DNA from: an uncultured Alphaproteobacteria bacterium
GTDB taxonomy: Bacteria > Pseudomonadota > Alphaproteobacteria > Rhizobiales > Beijerinckiaceae
Reading direction: 5' to 3'
Assembly: GCA_963820775.1 (NCBI GenBank)
Contig: CAWGBF010000013.1
Coordinates: 168,258-232,257, forward strand
DNA length: 64,000 bases
Shown: in pieces, positions 17,745-61,755 of the stretch
Layout: each line of letters begins with the position of its first letter
Numbering within the stretch: the stretch's first letter is position 1
The notes under the pieces: model-generated
What the model was told of the DNA's origin: nothing
What the model saw: the letters and a program-made list of their open reading frames with translations, nothing else
The model's database searches: none
Translations under genes and position numbers: made by a program

Positions 17745-18263
17745 ATGAAACGCACACTCGTGGCGGCGCTTGTCGCAGGTTCCATGTCAGCTCCTATCTT
17801 TGCGCTGGCCGCCGATGGCGATCAGCAGGCTTTACGCGCGGAGCGGATGCAGCAATGGGCAGCCGACCGCGAGACGATGCTGGACGCAAAGCTCGCGGGC
17901 ATGAAGGCTGGCCTTGGATTGACAGCCGACCAGGAGAAGCTCTGGGGCGCGTTCGAGTCCGCGGTCAAGGACGCCGACAAGTCGCGCATTGACGCCATGG
18001 GTCAGATGATGCGGATGCGCTCGCAGGGCGAGCGGATGTCGCCCATCGATCACCTTGAAGCCATGGCCGACCGCCTATCGCAGGGCGCCACGAACATTAA
18101 GAAAATCGCAGACGCCGCCAAGCCCCTATACGGCATCCTCGACGAGTCGCAGAAGCATAAGTTTAGCATGCTCGGGCGCATGCTGATGCCGGAGCGGTCC
18201 CGGTTCGCCATGGACATGATGCGCCATCACATGGGTGAACGCGATCGCAACGGCGCCGAGTAG
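17745..18263 (+). CDS. Spy/CpxP-family (LTXXQ) periplasmic protein
   Basis: Signal peptide MKRTLVAALVAG...; LKAGLGLTADQEKLW-like and LYGILDESQK motifs; Met-rich. Confidence 0.8.
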   Translation: MKRTLVAALVAGSMSAPIFALAADGDQQALRAERMQQWAADRETMLDAKLAGMKAGLGLTADQEKLWGAFESAVKDADKSRIDAMGQMMRMRSQGERMSPIDHLEAMADRLSQGATNIKKIADAAKPLYGILDESQKHKFSMLGRMLMPERSRFAMDMMRHHMGERDRNGAE

Positions 18264-37953: not shown

Positions 37954-38180
37954 AGTCTGGCTCCTTTTGCGCTTGCGCGCGACGCAGCGCGGGGCGCGGC
38001 TTCGGTGACTGTCGACTCAAAGCAAGCCGCGTGCCAGATGCGACCCTTTGTAAGCCATTGATTTATATGGGCAGAGCACATCGCCGCGGCGCTTGCATTT
38101 TGCATTTAGAATGCAAAATGATCATTTTCTATGCGCATCGGCGAAGGTATGCGAGATAGGCGATAAAACACGAGGCGACG

Positions 38181-44627: not shown

Positions 44628-45119
44628 TTACGCCTCGATAACGACTTCATGCGGCAGATCGACGAATTGCTCATCAGCCGCCGTTCCGTCGACAAAGGTC
44701 AAGACCGCGAAGCGCCCCGTGCGCTCCAGCGCCGACAGCGGATGGTGCCAAGTGTCCGCACGATAATTTATGCCCGTGTCGCCGGGCATCCTAAAAGCGC
44801 GAAGCTTGCCGAGGTCAGGCATTTCGTCAGCGCCGTGCGGCGCAACGAGCACGAGATAACTCGCGCAATCGACCGGAACGAAGGCCTGCGACGAATGGAC
44901 GTGCCGCTCCATCTGGACTGCCGCAAGCGGGAGCGTCTTCGGCGCGACGGTCGTCATCGAGAGCCGCACCCGCGCGGAAGGCCGATTGTTCTGCAACTCT
45001 TCGAGGAGCTCCTGCCGTCCGTGCCCTGGCGCCTGGGGCGGAATAAGTTGGCCGAAAGGCATGAACGACGCCGCGTCAATAGGCTGGATTTTGAGACGCA
45101 TCACGAGGCGGTCTCGCAA
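44628..45119 (-). CDS. Ureidoglycolate lyase/hydrolase (AllA family)
   Basis: FMPFGQLI, MERHVHSSQAFVP, GINYRADTWHHPL. Confidence 0.88.
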   Translation of the reverse strand: MRDRLVMRLKIQPIDAASFMPFGQLIPPQAPGHGRQELLEELQNNRPSARVRLSMTTVAPKTLPLAAVQMERHVHSSQAFVPVDCASYLVLVAPHGADEMPDLGKLRAFRMPGDTGINYRADTWHHPLSALERTGRFAVLTFVDGTAADEQFVDLPHEVVIEA

Positions 45120-45350
45120 GGATGTTCCTTAAGCCAATGCCGGGCGATGTCCTCGCGCTTGCAAATCCAGACGTCCGTTTTGCCGGACGCGTAGTCGGGG
45201 AAGCGCGCGAGGCCCGACGCTCTGCCCGGATGGCCGAGAAGGCGCATATGCATGCCGACGTTCATCATCTTGGGCCTCTCCCTGCCTTCTTCGTACAGAA
45301 GATCGAACGCCTCGCACAAGATCGCGAAGAAATCTTCGCCGGCGTGGTGG
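45101..45350 (-). pseudogene. C-terminal remnant of PuuE-like allantoinase / polysaccharide deacetylase
   Basis: GEDFFAILCEAFDLLYEEG..PKMMNVGMHMRLLGHPGR...VWICKREDIARHW; the N-terminal part is absent. Confidence 0.75.
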
Positions 45351-45673
45351 CGCCGCGTGTTCGGCATCACTCTGCCTTTGGGACGGCCGGCCCCCACAAG
45401 ATCGAATGGGTTTTCGGATCGACAATCCGCACCACCGTTTTTGGCGGCATGCTCATTTAGGAGATGAACGAGCTCCGTGCATTGAACTCGATGCTGGCCC
45501 GTCTCGGGGTCGGTCCGTTCCCGCACGGCTCTCGCCTGCAAATTGAGCTCCTGGCCGTCGCGCCGCACGATTCGTGGTCAACCGCCGCCGCCTTAGCCTG
45601 CACGCTGCAGTGGGAAATCCCTGAAATCGCAAGGAATCGCTTTCGCTCCAAACTGGCACGCATATTGCGCCGA

Positions 45674-45701
45674 GTATTACGCAATCGTGTTTTCGTAATA
45701 T
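45674..45701. promoter_or_regulatory. Candidate NikR-type operator GTATTA-N16-TAATAT
   Basis: Palindrome TATTACG...CGTAATA ending 18 nt upstream of the operon start; same spacing as the E. coli NikR operator GTATGA-N16-TCATAC; the operon encodes a NikR-like protein. Confidence 0.68.
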
Positions 45702-45719
45702 TAGCAATCGAAGAGCGTC

Positions 45720-46709
45720 ATGCATCGCAATCTGCGTCTCGGTTTCACCTTCGGGCTAATTCTGTCCGGCGTTTTGGCGGTCTCAAAGCCAGCATCGGCC
45801 GCGGGGTTGACGATCGGCTACAGCGATTGGCCGGGATGGGTCGCCTGGCAAGTCGCCATCGACAAAGGCTGGCTCAAGCAGGCCGGCATTGATGCGACGT
45901 TTCAATGGTTCGACTATTCGGCGTCAATGGACGCCTACTCCGCCGGTAAAATCGACGCGGATTTGGTCACCAACGGGGATGGACTTGTCACCGGCGCCGG
46001 CGGCGCCAAGGGCATCATGGTCATGTTGACCGACTATTCCAACGGCAACGACATGATCGTCGGCAAGCCCGGCGTTAAGACCATCAAAGATCTCAAGGGT
46101 AAAAAGGTCGGCGTCGAAACCGGTCTGGTTGAGCATCTCTTGCTGCTCAACGGCCTCAAGGACGCCGGCATGAGCGAACAAGACGTCACGTTGGTGAATG
46201 CAAAGACCAACGAGACGCCGCAAGTGCTGGCCTCAGGTCAGGTCGACGCCATCGGGGCATGGCAGCCTGTTTCGGGAAGCGCGATGAAGGCGCTGCCCGG
46301 TTCGCGGCCAATCTACACTTCGGCTCAGGCCCCCGGACTGATCTACGACGTCCTCTACGCCAGCCCGGCGAGCCTGAGCGCCCATCGCGCCGACTACATG
46401 AAGCTGGCCAAAGTGTGGGATCGCGTCGTTTCCTATATCAACGATCCCAAAACCCAGGACGACGCCGTCAAGATCATGTCGGCGCGGGTCGGGCTGACGC
46501 CAGCCGCCTACAAGCCATTGCTCAAGGGCACCCATCTCATAGGTCTGGCGGAAGGCAAGAAGACCTATGGGAAGGGCGATGGGCTGGCCTCGCTCTATGG
46601 CTCGTCCAAAATCGCCGACGACTTCAACGTGAAGAATGGGGTCTACAAGGCCGCCCAGGACATTGATGCCGCCATCGATCCGTCCGTGACGAACGACGCC
46701 CTGAAATAG
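45720..46709 (+). CDS. ABC substrate-binding protein (urea-carboxylase-region / NMT1-like)
   Basis: Signal peptide; GYSDWPGW, DYSNGNDMI, WQPVS. Confidence 0.88.
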   Translation: MHRNLRLGFTFGLILSGVLAVSKPASAAGLTIGYSDWPGWVAWQVAIDKGWLKQAGIDATFQWFDYSASMDAYSAGKIDADLVTNGDGLVTGAGGAKGIMVMLTDYSNGNDMIVGKPGVKTIKDLKGKKVGVETGLVEHLLLLNGLKDAGMSEQDVTLVNAKTNETPQVLASGQVDAIGAWQPVSGSAMKALPGSRPIYTSAQAPGLIYDVLYASPASLSAHRADYMKLAKVWDRVVSYINDPKTQDDAVKIMSARVGLTPAAYKPLLKGTHLIGLAEGKKTYGKGDGLASLYGSSKIADDFNVKNGVYKAAQDIDAAIDPSVTNDALK

Positions 46710-46735
46710 CGCGATCGGGACCGGCGTAATTCACG

Positions 46736-47695
46736 ATGAAACTGTTTCAACTTCACGTGGCGCTGGCGCCACGCGCGAAGTTCCTGATCGGCGTCTTGTC
46801 CTTCGTGCTGCCGATCGCACTTTGGTGCATCGTGAGTTACGTCCCCGCCGTCTGGCATCCGCAAATGCTAATTACCGATCCCGGCTCCACCGACTATCTG
46901 CAGATCGGCATGCGCATGGACCGCGCGGCTTTTGACAGCGAGGTCGCGGCCGCCAAGGCCGAGGGCCGGGCGCCGCCTGCCGGCGTTCGATCGAATCCGA
47001 TCTATTTGCCTTCGCCCGGCGAAGTCGCAGCCGCGTTCTACCAGTCCTTCACGACGCCGCCGCCAACCCAGGACGGCGAGTGGCTGCATCAAAGCCTCTG
47101 GCACAGCATTCAGATCATTTTCTGGGGCTTCCTGATCTCGTCCATCATCGGCGTGCCGCTCGGAATTCTTTGCGGCGCCTACGCCGCCGTCTCCAGGCTG
47201 TTCGAGCCTTTCGTCGAGTTTTTCCGCTATCTGCCCGCGCCGGCGTTCGGCGCGTTGGCTGTCGCCATCTTGGGCATCTACGATGGGCCGAAAATCACGA
47301 TCATCGTCATCGGCACGCTGTTCCAGCAGATTCTCATCATCGCGAACACGACCCGCAAACTGGACGGCGCGCTGGTTGAAGCCGCCCTCACCCTCGGCGC
47401 CAAGAATTCACAGCTCCTCAGGCGCGTCGTGCTGCCCGGAATTCTGCCTGATCTCTATCGCGATCAGCGCATTCTGCTTGGCTGGGCCTGGACCTATCTG
47501 ATCGTCGCCGAATTGATCGGCACCACAAGCGGCATCACCTGGTTCATCACGCAACAGGCCCGCTACCAGCATTTCCCCAACGTCTATGCGGCGATCACGA
47601 TGATCGGCATCCTCGGCCTGGGCACGGACATGATCCTGGCGCTGCTCAGCCGCCGTTTATTCCCGTGGGACCGGTCTCTTGCAAAATCCAATTGA
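46736..47695 (+). CDS. ABC permease
   Basis: [29 protein letters not shown]. Confidence 0.9.
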
Positions 47696-48623
47696 AGGGC
47701 TGGCGAGGACTCCGTCCAGTTCTGAGGCCGGTCTTTTGCCGTCCTATCTGGATCAGTCGGACGATGTGCGCGAGCGCTTCGACCGTATGAAGGCGCGCGA
47801 TGTCATTCTGAAAGTCGAGCGTCTGGGCAAGACGTTCCAGTCGGCGGCCGGCGCAACGTTGGCGCTCGACGACATCAACTTTTCGACGCATCGGCGCGAA
47901 TTTCAGTGCGTAGTCGGGCCGTCAGGCTGCGGCAAGTCCACCCTTATTCGGATTCTGGCCGGCCTTGAAGAAAAAACCTGCGGCCAAGTCCTGCTGCAGG
48001 GCAAGCCTGTCTCCGGACCCGGCCGCGATCGCGGCATGGTCTTTCAAGGCTATACGCTGTTTCCCTGGCTGACGGTCAAGAAGAACGTGATGTTCGGGCT
48101 GGAAGTCAACGGCGCCGGCGGTCACCAGGCCGAGCGCGAAGCGCTGCAATGGCTGCAACTCGTCGGTCTCGAGAAATTCGCCGACGCCTACCCGCACCAG
48201 CTGTCCGGCGGCATGAAACAGCGCGTCGCGATCGTCCGCGCGCTCGCCAATCAGCCGCGCATTCTTTTGATGGATGAGCCGTTCGGCGCGCTCGACGCAC
48301 AGACGCGCGCACGCATGCAAGCTCATCTTCTGGAGATATGGAAGAAGATCGACATCACCATCATCTTCATCACCCATGACCTCGACGAGGCGATATTTCT
48401 CGGCGACCGCATTCTGGTTCTGTCTCCCCATCCCGGCCGCGTGCAGGAACTGATCGAAGTGCCGGTCCCGCGGCCGCGCACGCCGATGCAATGCATCTTG
48501 CCGGAATTTCTCGCCGCCAAGGCCCGGCTGGAAGAACTCATCCATCAATCGACGGCGCATGACGAGCTTGAAACTTATCCGGCCGTCGTCCGCCTCACGA
48601 ACGTTGCCGACGATGTCGAATAG
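47679..48623 (+). CDS. ABC ATP-binding protein
   Basis: [27 protein letters not shown]; start uncertain. Confidence 0.92.
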
Positions 48624-48632
48624 GCGTCCGCG

Positions 48633-49403
48633 ATGATGTGGTCCGAGCGCAGCTGGGTCGAACTCCCGCACGATCTGGAAAGGGTCGGGCGCGCCGCGAT
48701 CCTGCCCGTCGGCGCGACCGAGCAGCATGGCCCGCATCTGGGCGCGGGCGTCGACGCCGTTCTGGCCGATCGCCTGTGCGCGGAGGCGTCGAAACGCACC
48801 CAGGTGCCGATGCTGCCGACGCTGCCTTACGGCTGCTCGCTCGGGCATAGCCGGCGCTGGGCGGGCGCGCTCGCCGTGCAGCCGGTCACGCTAATCCACT
48901 TCGTCAAGGACATCGGCGAGTGGGCGTATCACAGCGGCGTGCGCCGGCTGTTCATCGTCAACACCCATGTCACCAATGCCGCGCCGTTGCGTTGCGCGCT
49001 TGAAATGCTGCGCAGCGAGCTCGACGACCTGATGGTCGCGCTCATCGATTCTGCAACGGTCAGCGCGCGCGTGCGCGCCGTCCATTTTTCCGACGCCGAG
49101 GATTGGCACGCCAATGACGCCGAAACTTCCCTGATGCTGGAGGTCGCGCCCGAACTCGTGCGCAAGACGCTTGTCACCGCCGCCGACGATCCGGATCGCA
49201 CGACCGGGCTGGTGTTCGCGCATCCCATCAATCGCACCAGCAGCAACGGCGTGACGGGAGCGCCGAGCCGGGCAAGCGCGGACAAGGGTCGGCTCTGGTT
49301 CTCCTGGATGGTGGACGACCTGTGCGCGCAGATCCGCCTGGGCTTGGTGGAAACGCCCCCGCTCGATCATTCCTACTTCGGCAAAGCCGATCAGTCCGAA
49401 TAG
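48633..49403 (+). CDS. Creatininase-family amidohydrolase
   Basis: [33 protein letters not shown]. Confidence 0.88.
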
Positions 49404-49414
49404 GGCACAGACCG

Positions 49415-50776
49415 ATGTACACAAAAGAAAAAATATTCGAGATTGAGCAAAAGTTGCGCGCTCGCGGAATCAAATATTGCATCGGCGCCTATGTCGACAT
49501 CCATGGCGCGCCGAAGGCGAAAGTCGTGCCGCTCTCGCATCTCTCACACATGGCCCACGGTTCGGAGCGCTTTACCGGCTATGCGCTGGACGGCCTCGGC
49601 CAGGCGCCGAACGACGACGAAATCACCTCGCTCCCCGATCTCGATCACATCATTCAATTGCCGTGGGAGCCGAAAGTCGCCTGGCTGCCCGCCGACAATA
49701 TGTTTCAGGGCAAGCCCTATCCCCTAAACACGCGCGTCGCGCTCAAGAATGTCTTGGCGCGGGCCGGGGAACTGGGTTTCGGGTTCAATCTTGGTATTGA
49801 ATGCGAGGTCTATGTTCTCCGGCAGGGCGCCGACGGCGCGCTGTTGGTTCCCAATCCGGATGATAAGCTCGTCAAGCCTTGCTACGACGTGCGTTGCTTT
49901 CTCGACAACTTTACCTGGCTCGACAAGGTGGCGAGCTGCATCAATGATCTCGGCTGGGACCTGCATTCCTTCGATCATGAGGATGCGAACGGCCAATATG
50001 AATTCGACTTCAGTTATGCCGATGCGCTCACAATGTGCGACCGCTTCATTTTCTTCCGCTATATGGCCAAGCATTATGCGCGCGAACAAGGGCTGCTGGC
50101 GACGATCATGCCCAAGCCTTTTGCCGACAAAACCGGCACTGGCGCGCATTTCAACATGTCGCTTTATGATCTCAAGAGCGGCGCAAATATGTTCGCCCGG
50201 TCAGCGTCCGACGATCCGCGCGGCATCGGGCTGACTGAGACCGGCTATCACTTCATCGGCGGCGTGCTGAAGCATGGCCGCGCGCTTTGCGCCGCGTTCG
50301 CGCCCACCGTCAACAGTTACAAGCGTTTGGTGCGCCGGGGCGCGATGAGTTACTTTTCCTGGGCGCCGGTCTTCAATTCCTATGGTTCGAACAATCGCAC
50401 GAATTCGATGCGGGTTCCGGCCGGCGGCGGGCGTTGCGAGTCCCGCAACGCCGACGGCGCCGTCAATCCTTACCTGGCGGCTGCGCTTGTGCTGGCGGCC
50501 GGTCTCGACGGCGTCAAAAACAAGATCGATCCCGGCAGACCCAACGACGACAAGCTCTATGAAATGACCGATGCGGAGCGTCTCGATCGCGGGATCGAGT
50601 TCCTACCGCAGACGCTTCAAGAAGCCGTCGCGGCCTTTGCCGCCGATCCTTTGATCGAAGCAACGTTGGGTAAGGAGCTCCGCGACGAATTCATCAAGTA
50701 CAAAACGATCGAATGGGAATCCTATCATTTGTCTGTCAGCAAATGGGAGATCGAACACTATAGCCATCTCTTTTAG
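49415..50776 (+). CDS. Type III glutamine synthetase-like (GlnT) gamma-glutamyl ligase
   Basis: [40 protein letters not shown]. Confidence 0.88.
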
Positions 50777-50791
50777 ATCGGGAAGGAAACG

Positions 50792-51259
50792 ATGAGCGCC
50801 CACATACGGGGGAACAACAAACCTGTTTCGAGAATCAGTATGTCTCTGCCGGAGACTTTGTTGTGCGATCTCGACCGCATGGTGGAGGAGCGTGGTTTTG
50901 ACAGCCGCTCGCAAGCGATCGCGGACATGCTCTATCAGTCGCTGGTGGAACACAAAAGCGATGTCGGCCAAGATGTCATGGTCGGCGTCGTCACGCTGTT
51001 TTACGACAATTCGGTCGCAGGCCTTCAGAAGCAGCTTGCCGATCTGCAATTTCGCCATATCGCCGAAGTCATCAGTTCGCTGCACGTCCATTTGATGCAC
51101 AATCAGACAATGGAGGTGATCCTGGTGCAGGGCCCGGCGCAAAAGCTCCGCGTGATCGCCGACGAAATGACATCGCGTCGCGGCGTCATTTCCGGGAAAA
51201 TGCATCTGATCGCGGCCCTTATTCCCCAACTTCATCCCTTCCGCCAGGAAAGAGACTAG
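50792..51259 (+). CDS. NikR-like ribbon-helix-helix regulator with degenerate Ni site
   Basis: RISMSLPETLL..LD.MVEERGF.SRSQAI RHH; SSLHVHL kept, but QF replaces QH and TMEV replaces CLE. Confidence 0.85.
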   Translation: MSAHIRGNNKPVSRISMSLPETLLCDLDRMVEERGFDSRSQAIADMLYQSLVEHKSDVGQDVMVGVVTLFYDNSVAGLQKQLADLQFRHIAEVISSLHVHLMHNQTMEVILVQGPAQKLRVIADEMTSRRGVISGKMHLIAALIPQLHPFRQERD

Positions 51260-51260
51260 G

Positions 51261-52074
51261 ATGAGCGAGACAAATCCGACGCCCGAAGACTATCGCCGGC
51301 GCTATTTCGAATTGAAGGCGAAAGCGCGGGAAGCCAACGCCCCTCGTTCATCGGCGATCCAGGCGGCCAACCCGAAGATTTCTGGCCGCCGATCGAATCG
51401 AACGGGAAGAAACGATTCCGGCGGGTTGGTATTGGACGGGTCGCATGAAGCGCGGGCAAAGCCTGCGCATCGTCAATATTCACGCGACGCACGGGGTCTC
51501 GGCATTGTTTTGGAACGCACGCGATACGAGCGAGCGATTCAACCCGGCAGATTCGGTGAAGGTGCAATGGTCGGCTCGGCTTGCGCGCGGAAAACTTCTG
51601 CTTTCGGATATGGGGCGGGTGCTCGCATGCATCACCGACGACACCTGCGGCCAGCATGATTGCGTCGCCGGGGCGAGCACACGCAGCGGCGATGCGCGAA
51701 AATATGGCGCCAATCCCACTCGCCGCAATTCCCACGAGAATTTCGTTCTGGCCGCCGCCAAGCACGGCATGTCGGCGCGTGACGTTGGCCCTTGCATCAC
51801 TTTCTTTGCGCCTGTCGTCACCGATCAGGGCGGTCGCTTCGAATGGCGCGAAGACGCCGTGAAGCCCGGAGATTATGTGGATCTGCGCGCCGAGATGGAC
51901 TTGATCGTGGCGCTGTCCAACTGCCCGCACCCCTTAAGTCCGCGCGGCGATTGGCGCGCTGAACCCGTTCGTGCGTGTCTCTGGCGCTCCCCGGAGGCCG
52001 CCGACGACGATCTTTGTCGCACCGCGACGCAAGAGGCGGTGCGCGCATTCGAGAATACGGCGGCCATGTCATGA
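51261..52074 (+). CDS. DUF1989 protein, carboxyguanidine deiminase subunit CgdA-like; +1 indel near 51380
   Basis: ERFNPADSVKVQW, LLLSDMGRVL, VDLRAEMDLIVALSNCPHP. Removing one T joins the N-terminal ORF in frame. Confidence 0.82.
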
Positions 52075-52715
52075 TGATCGCAAAATCCCTCCTCGATCCG
52101 ACCAAGGCCGCCTACGATCACGTGGTCCCCGCCTGCACGCCGTGGTCCGGTCTCGTGCGCAAAGGACAATGTTTGCGGATCATCGATGTCGCCGGCCAGC
52201 AAGCGGTCGACACGCTGTTTTACCGCGCGGACAAATTCGCCGAACGCTACGACGCCCAGGGCACATTGGCCGCGCAGGGCTCCGCCTATGTCGCCGCGGG
52301 AACGCAACTTCTTTCCAATGAGGGAAATGTGATGGCGACGATGATCGCAGACACCTGCGGCGATCACGATACTTCGGCGGGTGCGTGCAGCTGCGAGGCC
52401 AATACCGTGCGCTTTGGCCACCACACACGCTACATGCACGCCTGCCGCGAAAATTTTCTGATCGAACTGGCCAAATACGGCATGGATAAGCGCGACATCG
52501 TCAGCAACATCAATTTCTTCATGAATGTGCCGATCTTGCCCGACGGCGAATTGGCGATCGTCGATGGGGTGTCCAAGGCGGGTGATTACGTCGAGTTGCG
52601 CGCGGAGATGGATGTGCTTTGCGTCATCTCGAATTGCCCGCAGGTCAACAATCCGTGCAACGGCTTTGATCCCACGCCGATTCGGGTCCTCATCTGGGAC
52701 GCTCCTGGCGATTAA
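52071..52715 (+). CDS. DUF1989 protein, carboxyguanidine deiminase subunit CgdB-like
   Basis: DTCGDHDTSAGACSCEANTVRF, INFFMNVP, SNCPQVNNPCN. Confidence 0.9.
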   Translation: MMIAKSLLDPTKAAYDHVVPACTPWSGLVRKGQCLRIIDVAGQQAVDTLFYRADKFAERYDAQGTLAAQGSAYVAAGTQLLSNEGNVMATMIADTCGDHDTSAGACSCEANTVRFGHHTRYMHACRENFLIELAKYGMDKRDIVSNINFFMNVPILPDGELAIVDGVSKAGDYVELRAEMDVLCVISNCPQVNNPCNGFDPTPIRVLIWDAPGD

Positions 52716-52723
52716 GAACGGCC

Positions 52724-55700
52724 ATGTTCAAAACGGTGCTGGTCGCTAACCGCGGCGAGATTGCAGCGCGCGTCATCCGCACGCTGCGCAGGCTTGGCGT
52801 TCAAGCCGTCGGCGTCGCCTCCGACGCCGACCGGTTCACCGCGCCGATGCGCGACGTCGACAAGCTGGTCAGGCTCGGCGCCGGGCCGGCCGCGGAAACC
52901 TATCTCAATATCGACGCCATCGTCGCCGCCTGCCATGCGACGGGAGCGGAGGCGGTTCATCCAGGTTACGGCTTTCTTTCCGAGAACATCGGCTTTGCCG
53001 GGCGGCTGGCCGCCGAGGGCATCGCGTTCATCGGGCCGCGCCCTGACCATCTCGGCGCCTTTGGCCTGAAACACTCGGCGCGCGAGATTGCCGCGCGTTG
53101 CGGCGTCCCGCTATTGCCCGGCAGCGGCCTTCTCGAGAGCGAGACGCATGCGCAGACCGAAGCGGCGCGCATCGCCTACCCCGTGATGCTGAAGAGCACC
53201 GCGGGCGGCGGCGGCGTCGGCATGCAGCTCTGCCGCACGCCGGGTGAGCTTTCGCAACGCTATGCGAGCGTGGCGCGGCTCGCGTCCAGCAATTTTGCCG
53301 ATGCGCGGCTCTATCTTGAGCGGTTCGTGGCGCGCGCGCGCCATATCGAAGTGCAAATCTTCGGCGACGGCGACGGGGGCGTCGTCGCGCTTGGCGAGCG
53401 CGATTGCTCGTTGCAGCGCCGCAACCAGAAAGTCGTGGAGGAAGCGCCAGCGCCCAATCTGAGCGAGACCATGCGCGAATATCTTCGCGACGCAGCGATC
53501 GCCTTGGGAAAGGCGGTTCGCTATGAATCAGCCGGCACGGTTGAATTCGTCTATGATGTCGAGCGCCAACAGCCCTATTTCCTGGAGGTCAATACGCGCC
53601 TTCAGGTCGAACATCCCGTGACGGAAGAAGTTTTCGGCGTCGATCTTGTCGAATGGATGATCCGCCAGGCGGCGGGCGAATTCACGCTGCCGCCGCAAGC
53701 CGCGTTGACGGCGCGCGGCCATGCCATCGAGGCGCGCCTTTACGCGGAAAATCCGGCGCAGGATTTTCGACCCTCGACTGGCGTCATCACCCAATTGTCT
53801 CTCCCTTCCGACGCGCGCATTGAAAGCTGGATTGAAGCAGGGGTCGAAGTCTCGCCATTCTACGATCCCATGCTCGTCAAGATCATTGCGCATGGCGGCG
53901 ATCGCGCCGCCGCGCTGTCGCGACTGGCGGATGCGCTCGATCAAACCAGCGTATGGGGCGTCGAGACTAACCTTGGCTATCTCCAACAAATCCTGCGTTG
54001 CGAAGCGTTTGGCTCCGGCGTCGCCACCACCGCGACGCTTGGGGATTTCGCCTTCCGGCCCCGCAGCGTCGAGGTGTTGGCGCCCGGCGCGCAATCTAGC
54101 CTGCAGGACTGCCCGGGACGGTTGGGATATTGGGATGTCGGCATTCCGCCGAGCGGTCCGATGGACGAGCGCTCGCACCGGCTCGTTAATAAGATTGTTG
54201 GCAATGACGAAGGCGCTGCGGTGCTGGAATGCACCCTCGCGGGGCCGAGCTTGCGGTTCGTCAGCGACAGCGTGATTGCGCTCGGCGGCGCGATGATGGC
54301 GGCGACGCTCGATGGCGCGCCCGTTCCGTACTGGCGTCCAGTTGACGTGAAGACGGGCCAGGTGCTGGCGCTCGGCCGGGTCGCCGGGAGCGGAATGCGC
54401 GCCTACCTTGCGGTCCGCGGAGGCTTCGACGCGCCACTCTATCTTGGTTCGCGCTCGACTTTCTCGCTGGGGGGGTTCGGCGGCCACGCAACGGGCGTCC
54501 TCAAAGCGGGAGACACGCTGCGCATTCGCCGCGAGCCGGTCTCAGCGGTCATGGACGACATTCCAAGCGATCTGCCCGCCTTGACGGACCGATGGGAGAT
54601 CGGGGTTCTCTACGGCCCCCAGGGCGCTCCGGAGTTTTTCACGAAAGACGACATCGCGTCGCTGTTCGAGGAGGAGTATGAGGTCCATTTCAACAGCGCC
54701 CGCACAGGCGTTCGCCTGATCGGCCCGCGTCCGCAATGGGCGCGCGCCGATGGCGGCGAAGCAGGCTTGCATCCCTCCAACATTCACGACAACGCCTACG
54801 CCGTCGGCGCCATCGATTTTACCGGCGACATGCCGATCATTCTGGGACCAGACGGTCCGAGCCTTGGCGGGTTCGTCTGTCCCGCCGTCGTGGCGAGCGG
54901 CGAACTCTGGAAACTCGGCCAGTTGAAGCCCGGCGACAAAATCGTCTTCCGCGCGATCACGCAAGAGCAGGCGATCGCGCTGCGCGCATCCGCACCCGTG
55001 GTTTTTCCCCGCAAGGCGCCGGAGGGCGATGTTCTTCGCAGCCTGGGTGGGCGCACGCCCAAAGTCGCCTACCGCGCCGCGGGCGACGACTATTTGTTGG
55101 TCGAATATGGAGCGATGACTTTGGACATCGCCTTGCGCTTGCGCGTGCATCTTTTGATGGAAGCCGTGCGCGCCGCTAAACTGCCCGCGATCATCGATCT
55201 GACGCCCGGCATCCGTTCGCTGCAAATCCACTACGACAGCCGGATATTGCCGCGAGCGCGCCTGCTCGAAGCGCTGGTCGCGCTGGAAGGCGATTTGGCG
55301 GATCCGAGGTCCGTGTCCGTGGAAAGCCGGATCGTCCATTTGCCGCTGGCATGGAACGACGAGCAGGCCGTGCTCGCGATGAAGAAATATTGCGAACTGG
55401 TGCGGCCGAACGCGCCCTGGTGCCCGTCGAACATCGAGTTCATTCGCCGGATCAACGGGCTCGAGAGCGAAGATGAGGTCCGCCGAATCGTTTTCGACGC
55501 GAGCTATCTTGTTCTGGGCCTGGGCGACGTCTACCTCGGAGCGCCAGTCGCGACGCCGCTCGATCCGCGCCATCGCCTCGTCACCACCAAGTACAATCCC
55601 GCGCGCACGTGGACGCCCGAAAACGCAGTCGGCATCGGCGGCGCCTATCTCTGTGTATATGGCATGGAGGGTCCGGGCGGTTACCAACTCGTCGGGCGCA

Positions 55701-56272
55701 CCATTCAGATGTGGAATCGCTGGCGGCAAACCGATTGTTTCGAAAAACCCTGGCTGTTGCGTTTCTTCGATCAGCTTCGTTTCTTTCCCGTTTCGGGCGA
55801 GGAACTGGTCGAAGCGCGCGCCGCGTTCCCACACGGCCGCTATCCCCTGCGCATCGAAGAAGGCCGCTTCACGCTACGCGAACACGAGAAATTTCTCGCC
55901 GCCAACGCGGAAGAGATCTCGCGCTTCAAATCTCGACAGCAAAGAGCCTTCTATGCCGAACGCCATCGCTGGCGTGATCTCGGTCTGGATAGCCATGTCG
56001 CCGACGCCGACATGGGGGCATTCCCAATGGTCGAGGAGACTTGGCCGGAAGGCATAAGTCCCGTGCATGCTTCGACCACCGGTACGGTCTGGAAACTAGA
56101 AGTCTCCATCGGCGAACCTGTGATAGCGGGTCAAACGCTTATCGTCACCGAATCGATGAAAATGGAGATCGCAATCACCGCGCCTGTCAGCGGCAAGTTA
56201 CGCGAATTGCGCTGCCAGCCGGGCCGAGTGGTCAGGGCAGGCCAGATCGTTGCGGTGATCGGACAGAACTGA
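52724..56272 (+). CDS. uca: Urea/guanidine carboxylase (biotin-dependent)
   Basis: VANRGEIA, HPGYGFLSEN, FLEVNTRLQVEH, SNIHDNAYAVGAIDFTGD, EGPGGYQ, biotin site ESMKM. Confidence 0.95.
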   Translation: MFKTVLVANRGEIAARVIRTLRRLGVQAVGVASDADRFTAPMRDVDKLVRLGAGPAAETYLNIDAIVAACHATGAEAVHPGYGFLSENIGFAGRLAAEGIAFIGPRPDHLGAFGLKHSAREIAARCGVPLLPGSGLLESETHAQTEAARIAYPVMLKSTAGGGGVGMQLCRTPGELSQRYASVARLASSNFADARLYLERFVARARHIEVQIFGDGDGGVVALGERDCSLQRRNQKVVEEAPAPNLSETMREYLRDAAIALGKAVRYESAGTVEFVYDVERQQPYFLEVNTRLQVEHPVTEEVFGVDLVEWMIRQAAGEFTLPPQAALTARGHAIEARLYAENPAQDFRPSTGVITQLSLPSDARIESWIEAGVEVSPFYDPMLVKIIAHGGDRAAALSRLADALDQTSVWGVETNLGYLQQILRCEAFGSGVATTATLGDFAFRPRSVEVLAPGAQSSLQDCPGRLGYWDVGIPPSGPMDERSHRLVNKIVGNDEGAAVLECTLAGPSLRFVSDSVIALGGAMMAATLDGAPVPYWRPVDVKTGQVLALGRVAGSGMRAYLAVRGGFDAPLYLGSRSTFSLGGFGGHATGVLKAGDTLRIRREPVSAVMDDIPSDLPALTDRWEIGVLYGPQGAPEFFTKDDIASLFEEEYEVHFNSARTGVRLIGPRPQWARADGGEAGLHPSNIHDNAYAVGAIDFTGDMPIILGPDGPSLGGFVCPAVVASGELWKLGQLKPGDKIVFRAITQEQAIALRASAPVVFPRKAPEGDVLRSLGGRTPKVAYRAAGDDYLLVEYGAMTLDIALRLRVHLLMEAVRAAKLPAIIDLTPGIRSLQIHYDSRILPRARLLEALVALEGDLADPRSVSVESRIVHLPLAWNDEQAVLAMKKYCELVRPNAPWCPSNIEFIRRINGLESEDEVRRIVFDASYLVLGLGDVYLGAPVATPLDPRHRLVTTKYNPARTWTPENAVGIGGAYLCVYGMEGPGGYQLVGRTIQMWNRWRQTDCFEKPWLLRFFDQLRFFPVSGEELVEARAAFPHGRYPLRIEEGRFTLREHEKFLAANAEEISRFKSRQQRAFYAERHRWRDLGLDSHVADADMGAFPMVEETWPEGISPVHASTTGTVWKLEVSIGEPVIAGQTLIVTESMKMEIAITAPVSGKLRELRCQPGRVVRAGQIVAVIGQN

Positions 56273-58123: not shown

Positions 58124-59408
58124 GGACGCTTCTAAGAACCTCGCGCCTTCCAGCGTTTTCTGATTCACTCCCAGGTGGAGTGGGAGGCGAATCGATGCGT
58201 GGCCAGGGGGGACTTTTCGACGTCGACGAGCGGCTGAAGCGGCTGAGCGATCTCGGCGATCAGTTGCAGGCTTTCGCAGCGGCGGTCGATTTCGAGATTT
58301 TCCGGTCCGAGCTGACGCGGGCGCTGGCCTACTCGGACGGCTCGCAGGGCGGCCGACCGCCGTTCGACCCTGTGATGATGTTCAAGATCCTGGTGATCCA
58401 GGCGGCCAACACCCTCTCGGACGAGCGTACCGAGTTTCTGATCAACGACCGCCTGTCGTTCATGCGGTTTCTCGGGTTGAGCCTATCCGATCGGGTTCCC
58501 GACGCTCGCACGATCTGGCTGTTCCGGGAAAAGCTGACCAGGGCCGAGGCGATTAAGCCACTGTTCGACCGGTTCGACGCGGCGCTGCGCGAGGCTGGCT
58601 ACGTCGCTATGGGCGGCCAGATCGTCGACGCCTCGCTGATCGCCGCGCCCAAGCAGCGCAACACCGAGGAGGAGAAGAAGGCGGTCAAGGAGGGGCGCAT
58701 TCCGCAGGCCTGGAAAGCCCAGCCAGCCAAGCTCCGGCAGAAGGACCGCGACGCGCGCTGGACGGTCAAGTTCAGCAAGGCCAAGGCCAGGCCGGATGGG
58801 ACGGTTCCTCCGGTCGACATCGCCATTCCGACATTCGGCTACCAAAACCATGTCTCGATCGACCGCGAACATGGGCTGATCCGGCGGTGGGAGGCGACCG
58901 ACGCTGCGGCCTACGAGGGCGCGCGGCTGCGTGAGGGGCTGCTCGACAAGACCAACACCGCGAGCGCCGTCTGGGCCGACACGGCCTACCGCTCGAAGGC
59001 CAATGAGGCGTTCCTCGAAAAGAATGGGTTCGTCAGCCGCGTCCATCGCAAGAAGCCGGCGGGCCGGCCCATGCCGGAGACGACGCGGCGCGCCAACGCG
59101 CTCAAGTCCAAAGTCCGCTCCGGCGTCGAACACGTCTTCGCCGTGCAGAAGGACAAGATGGACCTCTTCGTCCGCACCATCGGCATCGCCCGGGCGAAAA
59201 CCAAGATCGGCATGGCCAACCTCGTCTACAACTTCCGCAGGCTCGTCTTCCTCGATCGTCTCGCTGCCGCCTGACCCCCGCGCCAAAGGGCCGCCCGGTC
59301 GCCGCAGCATGCGGCGCCCTATGCCGCATCCAAAACCGAGATCCCGCACCTCAAAATCGCGTCACTCGACCCGTCTCCGTCCGGAAAAACGCGTTTATAG
59401 AACCGTCC
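58124..59408 (+). mobile_element. IS5-family insertion sequence
   Basis: IR GGACGCTTCTAAGAAC / GGACGGTTCTATAAAC (13/16); flanks fit a GGCA-AGCT-TGCC target with AGCT duplication, the left copy missing one base. Confidence 0.85.
58195..59274 (+). CDS. IS5-family transposase
   Basis: GGRPPFD, LSDERTE, VPDARTIW, IVDASLI, WADTAY, RSGVEHVF. Confidence 0.92.
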   Translation: MRGQGGLFDVDERLKRLSDLGDQLQAFAAAVDFEIFRSELTRALAYSDGSQGGRPPFDPVMMFKILVIQAANTLSDERTEFLINDRLSFMRFLGLSLSDRVPDARTIWLFREKLTRAEAIKPLFDRFDAALREAGYVAMGGQIVDASLIAAPKQRNTEEEKKAVKEGRIPQAWKAQPAKLRQKDRDARWTVKFSKAKARPDGTVPPVDIAIPTFGYQNHVSIDREHGLIRRWEATDAAAYEGARLREGLLDKTNTASAVWADTAYRSKANEAFLEKNGFVSRVHRKKPAGRPMPETTRRANALKSKVRSGVEHVFAVQKDKMDLFVRTIGIARAKTKIGMANLVYNFRRLVFLDRLAAA

Positions 59409-59476: not shown

Positions 59477-61755
59477 TCATTCCAATATTGGCTGAGAATT
59501 CCGCCGCAGAATTGTGACATTTCCGTAGCTGACCGACTTCGGTAACAATGGTAGCAAAATCTCCTCAATCAGAACTAGAAGATCTTTCGCTTCCTTATGC
59601 GCAAGCAGCGCATCTAGTTGACGGTTAAATTCGCCAATACCACGCCTGCCCAACGCCTTCCACAGAAAGGCGTTGTTGAGAAGGAGTCCGTACGGCGCGA
59701 TTTGCACCACCTCCAGGCCGCATTCAGCAGCCTTTTTGTGCATCTCTTGCTCGTGAGCAACGGCATAGAACTTTGCGGGATCACCTACATCACCACAATA
59801 AGGAAAATCATCCTGGCTTCCAAGATTCGGATCGCACGCATTCACGTGCTCGCGATTGCCGAAATCGAACAGAACGATTCCCCCGGCACGCGTGGGTCAA
59901 GGCGCGGATTTGCTGGAAACGCGGGGCTGGGATGACCGGGCCAGTGGCGTGGTGGAAGTCTGATATTCGTCGTTGAGATCCTTTCGAACGGCGGCGATCT
60001 GGCGCAGTTCGAACTCGGTGAAGCGCAAGCCGCGCCAGCGCTCGGCGGCTCGAATGAGCGCGCCGAACATAAGCTTGAGCACCGGCTTCTCGCCGTTCGA
60101 GCAGATTCGTCGTGCGAACGAAGCGGCGATGGGTGACCGGCAATCTCAGGTGCGCGATGCACGCCTCGAAATCGTCCTCGAAACAGGCGAGCGCGCTCGG
60201 CAGGAGATCGGCGTCGTCGGCGCGGATGCCGGCCGCCAGTTGGCGGGCAATCGCCCGCGACGGCGCCTGATAGCAGGCGCTGACGCGCGCCTTGGGCCAT
60301 AGGTCGGTCGGGACCTTCACCGCGAGGTTGCGCATGCGGTGCGCCAGGCAGCGCTGGCGCGCCGAGCGTGGAAAACATTCCTCGATCGCCCGGATGATCC
60401 CCGGCGCGCCGTCGGATACGACGAGCAACGGATCGCCGAGCCCGCGGGCGCGCAGATCCTGGAAGAACGCGCGCGCCGTCTCGACGTCCTCCTTGGAGCC
60501 CGCCATCAACGCCAACAGGACCTTGCGCCCGTCCTCGCCAATCCCCCAGGCTGCGAGCACGGCCTCACGCCGCTGGCCGGGCCGCAGCCGCTCAGCGATG
60601 CCGTCGACGATGGCGTGCTCGGAAAGATCGCGTTTGCAGAAGTCCTCATATTCGGCCCACAGCCGCTCGGTGATCTCGCTGACTGCCGCCCGCGATAGAA
60701 GCCGTCGGCCCGTCTCGTCGGTGAACGCATCCTCGATGTCGCGCGTCGACAGGCCTCGCGCGTAAAGTTCGACCGCCAGCCGCTCAAGTTCGCGCGTGCG
60801 CCCCGAAAGCGCCGCCCGCACGCCCGAAACAAAGGGTTCGGGCGTGTCGCGAACCTGCGGCGCCGAATATTCCACCGCGCCCTCCGCGGTCTTCACCTTG
60901 CCCGGCCGATAGCCGTTGCGGTAGCCGGCCTTTTCGCCGGCGCCGCGCTCATAACGCTCGCGGCCAAGGACATCGGAGACCTCGCCCTCGAGCGCCTCCT
61001 CGACGATCAGGCGCAGCGCCAGGCGGACCAGATCGCTTCGCCCCGCCGCCGTTCCCAAATCTCCGTTCATCAAGGCGCGAAGCTCCTCGCGCGTGCGTTC
61101 GGGTGCGGATAGTCTCTCCATCGGGATGCTCCCTGGGGCCTCCGGCGCCAACCGAAAGCCCGTTCTCCTGCTTCTCTTCAGGAAGGGTGCATCCCAACCC
61201 CATTTTCCAGCAAGCCTACGCCTTCACCGCACGCGTGACCCTGGCTTTTTCCCGAAGTATCCTAGGCCAGTCGGGAAAGTGCTGGAGGAACATGCGGGAG
61301 CTGACCACATCGAACTCTCCATTTTCTGCCGGAATGTCGGCGCCATTGCCTTGGCGCAGCTCGAAAGCCCGCTCTCCGCGTTCGGCCGACAATCTGCTCA
61401 GCATTCCCGAGCTCACGTCGCAAGCGACGACCCTATAACCAAGGTCATGCAGCGCAATCGATATCAACCCGGTGCCACAGCCAAGGTCCAGGATGCGCGC
61501 GCCAGGATCTGCATTGCGCTGCACATAACGGACGTAAAGATCACGGCGCAGCAGCTTGAAAAGCTCCGACGCCCCGATGGTGGCTGCGTGGTACCGGTCG
61601 GCGTCCTGTCGGGTCGCCCAGGCGCCAGTCTTGAACCCGGAAATTCCGCTCGAATCAGGTTCTCGCGTACTTTTCCCGGCAGCTGAAACCAACCTCCTGA
61701 GGCTGAATTGGCGAACGATGAAAGTGGGAAAAGCCGGTAGCCATCCGCCTCCCAA
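59477..61755 (-). pseudogene. Class I SAM-dependent methyltransferase interrupted by IS256
   Basis: ILDLGCGTG...EKARVTRA joins in frame to GGIVLFDFGN... once the IS and one TSD copy are removed; start codon uncertain. Confidence 0.82.
59895..61228 (-). mobile_element. IS256-family insertion sequence with degraded transposase (61121-59897)
   Basis: 25-bp IR, 20/25 identical (GGTCAAGGCGCGGATTTGCTGGAAA vs GGTGAAGGCGTAGGCTTGCTGGAAA); 9-bp TSD GCACGCGTG (59886-59894, 61229-61237); YRNGYR, SDGAPG, QRCLAH, RTTNLLER, with small deletions. Confidence 0.9.

Follow-up and report, generated by a model that had tools for sequence, protein, structure and literature searches.

To our knowledge, all characterised members of the textbook metalloregulator NikR sense nickel. 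This raises the question of what a NikR homologue does inside an operon for guanidine assimilation, the situation found in a 64,000-nt stretch of DNA (hereafter the window) from an uncultured alphaproteobacterium of the Beijerinckiaceae. Nine genes stand in a row on the + strand of the window (45720-56272), with gaps of at most 32 nt and two overlapping pairs. They encode, in this order, an NMT1-type ABC importer, a creatininase-like hydrolase, a glutamine synthetase (GS)-like ligase, the NikR-like protein, CgdA and CgdB, and a guanidine carboxylase. Based on the sequence comparisons described below, it is proposed with a probability of about 0.6 that the NikR-like protein acts as an operon-specific, autoregulated repressor of a σ54-dependent guanidine-assimilation operon and senses a small molecule that is not a metal. 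A full-text search of open-access papers yielded none in which a NikR-type regulator is associated with operons of guanidine, urea carboxylase or guanidine hydrolase.

Fold and nickel-ligand positions of the NikR-like protein

The open reading frame (ORF) of the NikR-like protein matches Pfam NikR_C (PF08753, 5e-23) and, over residues 13-139, P. horikoshii NikR (2bj1, 1.8e-28), the closest solved structure at 38% identity. The top Foldseek matches of its AlphaFold2 (AF2) model (mean pLDDT 78.7) were all NikR, with root-mean-square deviations of 0.8-1.5 Å over the C-terminal domain. Like E. coli NikR, the protein combines an N-terminal ribbon-helix-helix (RHH) domain with a C-terminal ACT-like tetramerisation domain (NikR_C), and the DNA-reading strand, Arg-x-Ser/Thr-x-Ser/Thr in the two proteins, is conserved; as Arg-x-Ser-x-Ser it matches the recognition strand of the P. 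horikoshii protein as well. The sequence-only reading had described an internal NikR homologue that keeps an H-x-H pair and lacks the first His and the Cys, and alignments with E. coli and P. horikoshii NikR agree: at the positions of the square-planar His76'/His87/His89/Cys95 site the window protein has Phe, His, His and Thr (Table 1). Glu30 of the second site is missing along with His76 and Cys95, whereas an LVQGP motif and a conserved C-terminal IPxxHP extension of about 15 residues set the protein apart from that of E. coli. It is predicted to be incapable of assembling the canonical His3Cys nickel site. In H. pylori and P. horikoshii NikR, by contrast, this site is complete and the targets are nickel-related, neither of which applies to the window protein. 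Two NCBIfam NikR equivalog cut-offs are passed (NF003381, 117.6 against 105; NF002815, 89.1 against 83) and one is missed (TIGR02793, 86.5 against 175), so that annotation pipelines will name the protein 'nickel-responsive regulator NikR'. This name is probably wrong here, and such a misannotation can mislead genome-based inferences on nickel use.

Relatives were sought among 1.84 billion cluster representatives; of the 1329 obtained, the best 150 were analysed. In the 61 canonical NikRs among them H76, H87, H89, C95 and E97 are invariant and H62 is nearly so. Sequences without Cys95 (64 rows) form essentially one clade nested among the canonical proteins, the HHHC label requiring two changes on the tree. 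Across 58 members of this clade all four ligand positions drift (the sets seen include RHQR, RHLT, RQQV, RNLT, YNNT, HLHT and YHYT), H62 is mostly lost and E30 is never Glu. Common to the clade are the LVQGP motif and a C-terminal (I/L)P(P/Q)xHP extension, neither of which occurs in canonical NikRs. Functionally, we regard the clade as a new variant within the NikR family, one that is NikR-like on DNA and lacks the defining His3Cys site. The former ligand positions were also considered as determinants of substrate specificity, which was rejected since the RHQR, RHLT, RQQV, RNLT and YHYT subfamilies share one operon type. Orthologues from Aquabacterium and Aquincola (L057, L059, L072, L073, L075, L077) have Cys, His, His and Met at these positions, plausibly a metal (copper-like) ligand set for which none of the proposed readings accounts.

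Predicted operator palindrome and σ54 promoter

The palindrome that the sequence-only reading had noticed just upstream of the operon, GTATTACGCAATCGTGTTTTCGTAATAT (GTATTA-N16-TAATAT), lies at 45674-45701 (+), with 18 nt between its end and the ATG of the first gene at 45720; the half-sites of the predicted operator are GTATTACG-N12-CGTAATAT. It is the sole match with no more than two mismatches in the window (0.28 expected by chance) and the sole site with no more than one mismatch to GTATTAC-N14-GTAATAC in its own 5.84-Mb genome. The nik operator of E. coli MG1655, read directly upstream of nikA, is GTATGACG-N12-CGTCATAC. The family consensus, GTATTACG-N12-CGTAATAC, is of equal length and spacing and differs from it by one symmetric base per half-site (GTATTAC-N14-GTAATAC here, GTATGAC-N14-GTCATAC in E. 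coli, the half-sites being 16 bp apart in both).

Related loci were collected by searching one genome per species, most of them metagenome-assembled genomes (MAGs), which gave 80 loci with close homologues (57-100% identity) from Alpha-, Beta- and Gammaproteobacteria and Verrucomicrobia. Upstream sequence sufficient for operator comparison was available for 63 of these, and in all 63 GTA(T/A)TAC-N14-GTA(A/T)TAC stands before the first gene of the operon, 7-66 nt (median 19) from its start codon. Match scores over the 1.29 Mb of related loci were bimodal, with 6 positions at 11/14 and 65 at 12-14; these 65 comprise a single site ahead of the first gene of every operon and, in L025 and L031, one more. 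Since the sites were chosen by likeness to the window palindrome, the invariant positions of the resulting logo arise partly by construction, which does not apply to the bimodal scores. Phylogenetic footprinting, which had been suggested as a check, thus finds the palindrome conserved upstream of orthologous operons and nearly absent elsewhere in this 1.29 Mb, and a chance AT-rich repeat is rejected. In distant subfamilies (about 48% identity) the same palindrome precedes a nikR-like gene followed by cgdAB and the genes for carboxylase and allophanate hydrolase; among the contigs whose DNA could be read, it was found together with a σ54 motif before the nikR-like gene in L085 (8959), L086 and L089 (8970), and before the binding-protein gene in L089 (981).

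A conserved σ54 promoter abutting the operator had been overlooked in the earlier reading. TGGCAC-N5-TTGC, an exact -24/-12 match (TGGCACGCATATTGC, 45654-45668, +), lies 5 nt upstream of the palindrome; the window contains two such exact matches, compared with 0.24 expected. Within 45 nt upstream of the operator, a relaxed GG-N10-GC is present in 63/63 loci and the strict TGGCAY-N5-TTGC in 43/63 (0.001 expected per 45-nt stretch), and the gap between promoter and operator is 5-9 nt in 53 of the 63. The genome encodes rpoN (Sigma54_DBD match 2.3e-61, contig C1). A σ70-like promoter was not found on the + strand between 45300 and 45800; this, with the conserved σ54 motif, led to the rejection of TAATAT as a -10 box. 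The E. coli nik operon differs in having a σ70 promoter.

Since the C of the -12 element is at 45668, transcription is predicted to start near 45680, and the operator would then span approximately -6 to +22, for which reason the protein is read as a repressor. A tetramer would place its two RHH dimers on the two half-sites, and the bound operator would block open-complex formation or promoter escape of the σ54 holoenzyme. Transcription would then require both an enhancer-binding activator, presumably responding to nitrogen limitation, and release of the repressor. The layout recalls E. coli nikABCDE-nikR, in which nikR comes last, behind the ABC importer that NikR represses; the NikR-like gene likewise stands behind an importer, although of the NMT1/SsuA type rather than the peptide/nickel type of NikA, and in an operon for guanidine assimilation rather than nickel uptake. 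For the nikR-like gene of the window, an operator or internal promoter of its own was considered and rejected, the site being single in the window and the gap to the GS-like gene only 15 nt.

Taken together, the palindrome is very probably the operator of the NikR-like protein. Its assignment comes from sequence comparison, and transcription would carry part of it into the leader as well (first ∼22 nt). On a rival reading it is a structural part of the promoter or 5' leader, or is bound by another factor such as the σ54 activator or integration host factor (IHF), with the NikR-like protein regulating something else. This is very improbable, given that sequence and spacing are nearly identical to those of the experimentally known E. 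coli NikR operator, that palindrome and NikR-like gene strictly co-occur in the 63 loci and in distant subfamilies, the site moving with the gene, and that the genome holds no further site; σ54 activators, moreover, bind upstream of the promoter and not at +1.

Guanidine-assimilation context and candidate effectors

In the 80 loci the order binding protein, permease, ATPase, optional creatininase and GS-like genes, and NikR-like gene is kept wherever the contig reaches. In close relatives the operon then continues with, or is flanked by, cgdAB and the carboxylase gene, and in 14/80 loci a gene for a GdmH guanidine hydrolase is found instead. These genes encode arginase-family proteins (1e-162 to PDB 7esr/7oi1, which we take to be Synechocystis GdmH) and follow the nikR-like gene after 36-116 nt. 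The five distant subfamilies whose context was examined (42-48% identity) all precede two DUF1989 genes, a carboxylase and an allophanate hydrolase gene, with an ABC importer or creatininase, GS-like and Rieske oxygenase genes on the upstream side. Members of the Cys-less clade with examined context thus all lie in predicted guanidine-assimilation operons, by either of two known routes. In the window the guanidine carboxylase pathway is represented in the operon by two DUF1989 genes and a TIGR02712 carboxylase, with an allophanate hydrolase C-domain gene elsewhere. The picture is not that of a nickel uptake or nickel enzyme regulon: the sole operator of the genome precedes a guanidine operon, although some relatives do carry GdmH.

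Guanidine-I (ykkC) and guanidine-II (mini-ykkC) riboswitches are known to control these genes too (cgdAB and those for the carboxylase and for NitT/TauT-type ABC transporters); they are RNA sensors that act after transcription initiation, to which the NikR-like protein would add a layer. The sequence-only reading had seen no riboswitch motif in the window, and a scan with the Rfam families indeed gave no match at the gathering threshold in the whole window, leader included; at a relaxed threshold, 45000-46000 gave only noise (E ≥ 0.5). Guanidine-I was also without a match in the whole genome. A riboswitch in the operon leader was rejected on the basis of these scans. When 37 related loci were scanned with Rfam, Guanidine-I or Guanidine-II was found together with the NikR-like gene in 16, beside the carboxylase genes in all of these except L074, whose Guanidine-II match (1053-1100) is outside the cluster; L040 has both types (Table 1). 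Riboswitches beside cgdA and the carboxylase gene in relatives provide independent confirmation that the module handles guanidine and responds to it, and their presence in the same clusters as the NikR-like gene suggests two layered controls rather than alternatives. The earlier suggestion of a repurposed NikR replacing the riboswitch therefore stands in part. The clade is tied throughout to guanidine-assimilation operons and lacks the canonical nickel site, and neither the window nor its leader has a riboswitch; replacement, however, does not describe the 16 of 37 loci in which both are present. In L004, whose regulator is 79% identical, a mini-ykkC element and a Shine-Dalgarno sequence separate the nikR-like gene from cgdA, whereas in the window the gap between stop and start is 2 nt. 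The riboswitch spacer is missing only in the window and its closest relatives L002 and L003, where the carboxylase genes are fused to the transcript under NikR-like control. In the window the predicted σ54 promoter and operator thus appear to be the only recognisable control of the carboxylase genes. In L027 a Guanidine-I match (17773-17880, 92.9 bits) precedes a long ORF resembling a TonB-dependent outer-membrane receptor, a hint that guanidine or some related compound may be taken up across the outer membrane under riboswitch control.

As the effector we tentatively favour guanidine itself or the compound imported by the ABC system, in the role of either inducer or co-repressor. As an inducer, guanidine or its precursor would let the protein do at transcription initiation what the riboswitch does downstream. 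As a co-repressor, the role nickel has for NikR, it would cap import in a loaded cell while the riboswitches switch catabolism on, which would explain why riboswitch and NikR-like gene co-occur. MetJ, a small-molecule-responsive RHH repressor, binds DNA with an affinity that depends on a metabolite of its own pathway. The same behaviour is proposed here for the NikR-like protein, although the effector domains of the two are unrelated and the effector of the latter is only proposed. A bolder and distinctly tentative version makes the clade the first protein, as opposed to RNA, that senses free guanidine or a guanidino compound closely preceding it, with a new effector site involving LVQGP and PPxHP and repression of the σ54 promoter through -12 to +20.

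Several points weigh against a small-molecule sensor. Position 76 varies (F/V/Y/A/S/C/H) among orthologues in the same context, and this drift of former nickel-ligand positions argues against a conserved new ligand pocket there. The C-terminal extension is of low confidence in the AF2 monomer, so that its placement relative to His98 and His100 is uninformative. Among 43 subfamily members His98 and His148 are invariant and His100 is at least 90% conserved, which leaves some room for a metal site. Guanidine ON-riboswitches are present in the same clusters, and the signal of the protein may not simply be 'guanidine present'. Neither an enhancer-binding protein gene nor a conserved upstream activator site was found; no conserved activator gene lies beside the operon, the upstream neighbours varying among loci, and NtrC-like boxes (≥9/10) are only weakly enriched, in 6/63 upstream regions compared with a 1% background. 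Operator binding, repression and effector are alike predictions from comparative genomics.

One alternative is an autorepressor that binds no ligand, its C-terminal domain serving only as a tetramerisation scaffold that spaces the two RHH dimers. Many RHH proteins are effector-free autorepressors, and since the gene lies inside the operon it would repress, such a protein would simply damp σ54-driven expression and stabilise it, the signals all entering through the enhancer-binding activator and, in relatives, through guanidine riboswitches. Consistent with this, the four former ligand positions, H62 and E30 drift while context and operator remain constant, and riboswitches supply a guanidine signal in the 16 loci mentioned above. 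A scaffold would seem to need less constraint than is seen, however: the C-terminal domain is very conserved in the subfamily (GLQKQLADLQ, EVISSLHVHL, LVQGP) and the clade-specific PPxHP extension is kept across phyla. In addition, the window and several distant loci lack a riboswitch and would be left with no substrate-specific input. Because of the conservation of domain and extension, a small-molecule sensor is preferred and the effector-free alternative considered unlikely.

A less likely alternative again is that the protein is still a metalloregulator whose rebuilt site (His98, His100, His148 and, in gammaproteobacterial members, a His at position 76) binds nickel or a different metal. 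Guanidine assimilation would then be coupled to the supply of metal, such as that needed by the Ni-dependent GdmH hydrolase. The conserved histidines just described, the passing of NikR equivalog cut-offs, the H-H-H-T of basal members and the C-H-H-M of Aquabacterium members, a plausible metal ligand set, are in keeping with this, as are the 14 loci in which the next gene encodes a GdmH-type hydrolase, of a family reported to be Ni-dependent, with a His-rich protein after it. The metal reading is nevertheless ranked low because Cys95 is absent throughout the clade, His76 is Phe here and F/V/Y/A/S in close orthologues, and His87, His89 or both are lost in sister subfamilies that share this context (RNLT, RQQV, YNNT). 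Glu is also never found at E30 of the second (K+/low-affinity) site in the clade, and the window operon encodes no nickel enzyme and no nickel transporter. The His-rich protein is of ∼163 residues (MHAGHEHHH..., no Pfam match), follows GdmH in 11 of the 14 loci and is possibly a nickel chaperone.

Were the non-metal sensor to hold, a widespread clade without the metal site and with the DNA-binding geometry would show the conversion of a metal sensor into a pathway-specific regulator. Its recruitment has been to guanidine assimilation, whose part in the nitrogen cycle was recognised only recently. A pathway whose control has so far been ascribed to riboswitches would gain a protein layer, and the clade would also define a clean and testable regulon with one operator per genome and offer a candidate part for guanidine or nitrogen biosensors. 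If guanidine is indeed what is sensed, the gating of σ54 transcription by a repressor on -12 to +20 would be unusual.

Gene assignments and neighbouring features

Table 1. Genes of the window operon, residues at the nickel-ligand positions of its NikR-like protein, and riboswitch and GdmH loci among relatives.
Feature	Position or loci	Strand	Evidence
NMT1/SsuA-type periplasmic substrate-binding protein, operon gene 1	45720-46709	+	Pfam NMT1 3.6e-15; synteny in 80 loci
ABC transporter permease	46736-47695	+	Pfam BPD_transp_1 6.8e-22
ABC transporter ATPase	47679-48623	+	Pfam ABC_tran 2.1e-33
Creatininase-family amidohydrolase	48633-49403	+	Pfam Creatininase 3.1e-63; PDB creatininases ∼1e-16; synteny
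Type III glutamine-synthetase-like ligase, optional module	49415-50776	+	Pfam Gln-synt_C 8.2e-87
NikR-like ribbon-helix-helix regulator, 155 aa	50792-51259	+	Pfam NikR_C, PDB NikR match, AF2 model
cgdA (DUF1989, urea-carboxylase-associated protein)	51262-52074	+	Pfam DUF1989 1.2e-49
cgdB (DUF1989, UAAP2)	52068-52715	+	Pfam 1.9e-68; TIGR03424 above cut-off
Biotin-dependent urea/guanidine carboxylase, final operon gene in window	52724-56272	+	TIGR02712 1780 bits, cut-off 1304
Ni ligand E. coli His76	Phe87 (DLQF)		Alignments with E. coli and P. horikoshii NikR
Ni ligand E. coli His87	His98, kept (LHVH)		Alignments with E. coli and P. horikoshii NikR
Ni ligand E. coli His89	His100, kept (LHVH)		Alignments with E. 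coli and P. horikoshii NikR
Ni ligand E. coli Cys95	Thr106 (NQTME)		Alignments with E. coli and P. horikoshii NikR
Guanidine-I before cgdA	L040, L048, L054, L077		
Guanidine-II between nikR-like gene and cgdA	L004, L014, L036, L039, L040		
Guanidine-II between cgdB and carboxylase gene	L027, L070, L071, L079, L080, L081, L091		
GdmH loci	L010-L013, L015, L016, L018, L020, L021, L025, L030, L031, L033, L055; e.g. L013:10462-12172		

The best NCBIfam match of the binding protein is TIGR03427 (urea-carboxylase-associated ABC binding protein), below its cut-off. The creatininase gene, likewise optional, occurs in about two thirds of the related loci. The GS-like ligase is nearest to glutamate-methylamine ligase (PDB 9qur, 4.9e-112) and scores above the cut-off of TIGR03105 (type III glutamine synthetase). 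Together these two genes point to the processing of a methylated substrate, for instance methylguanidine or creatinine, upstream of guanidine.

The cgdA gene is split by a +1 frameshift near 51380 (within 51262-51445), located by two-frame tblastn against the L003 orthologue, such that the first 39 residues are read in a different frame from the rest. Compared with the near-identical locus L002 (CCGAAGATTCTGG), the window (CCGAAGATTTCTGG) has an extra T. Either the long-read MAG has a homopolymer error here, or carboxyguanidine deiminase subunit A is truly inactivated.

On the opposite strand upstream of the operon lies an intact ureidoglycolate lyase gene (44628-45119, -), followed by an ORF (45101-45568, -) of which only the last ∼79 residues match PuuE allantoinase (226-304 of 308). 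Since this puuE gene is merely a C-terminal remnant, the ∼370 nt before 45720 (45350-45719) can be regarded as non-coding regulatory DNA. The second exact TGGCAC-N5-TTGC match of the window (38022-38036, -) is possibly another σ54 promoter in a nitrogen-scavenging neighbourhood. UrtA/UrtB-like genes for a urea ABC transporter are divergently encoded upstream of the operator in several loci (L010, L011, L030 and other Xanthobacteraceae loci), a link to urea scavenging.

Downstream, no allophanate hydrolase gene follows that of the carboxylase; the C-domain gene is on another contig (C11:182773-183141). Past the operon there are two transposase genes, one of the DDE/DUF772 type (58180-59274) and one of the Mutator family (59808-61151, -). 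Four metagenome contigs with distant subfamilies of the regulator (L085, L086, L089, L090) have longer operons in which Rieske oxygenase, FGE-sulfatase-like and AP_endonuc_2 TIM-barrel genes join the creatininase and GS-like genes, and those of L085, L086 and L090, unlike that of L089, also include SDR and polysaccharide deacetylase genes. These operons look like a pathway that would feed some guanidino compound, perhaps N-methylated, into the carboxylase.

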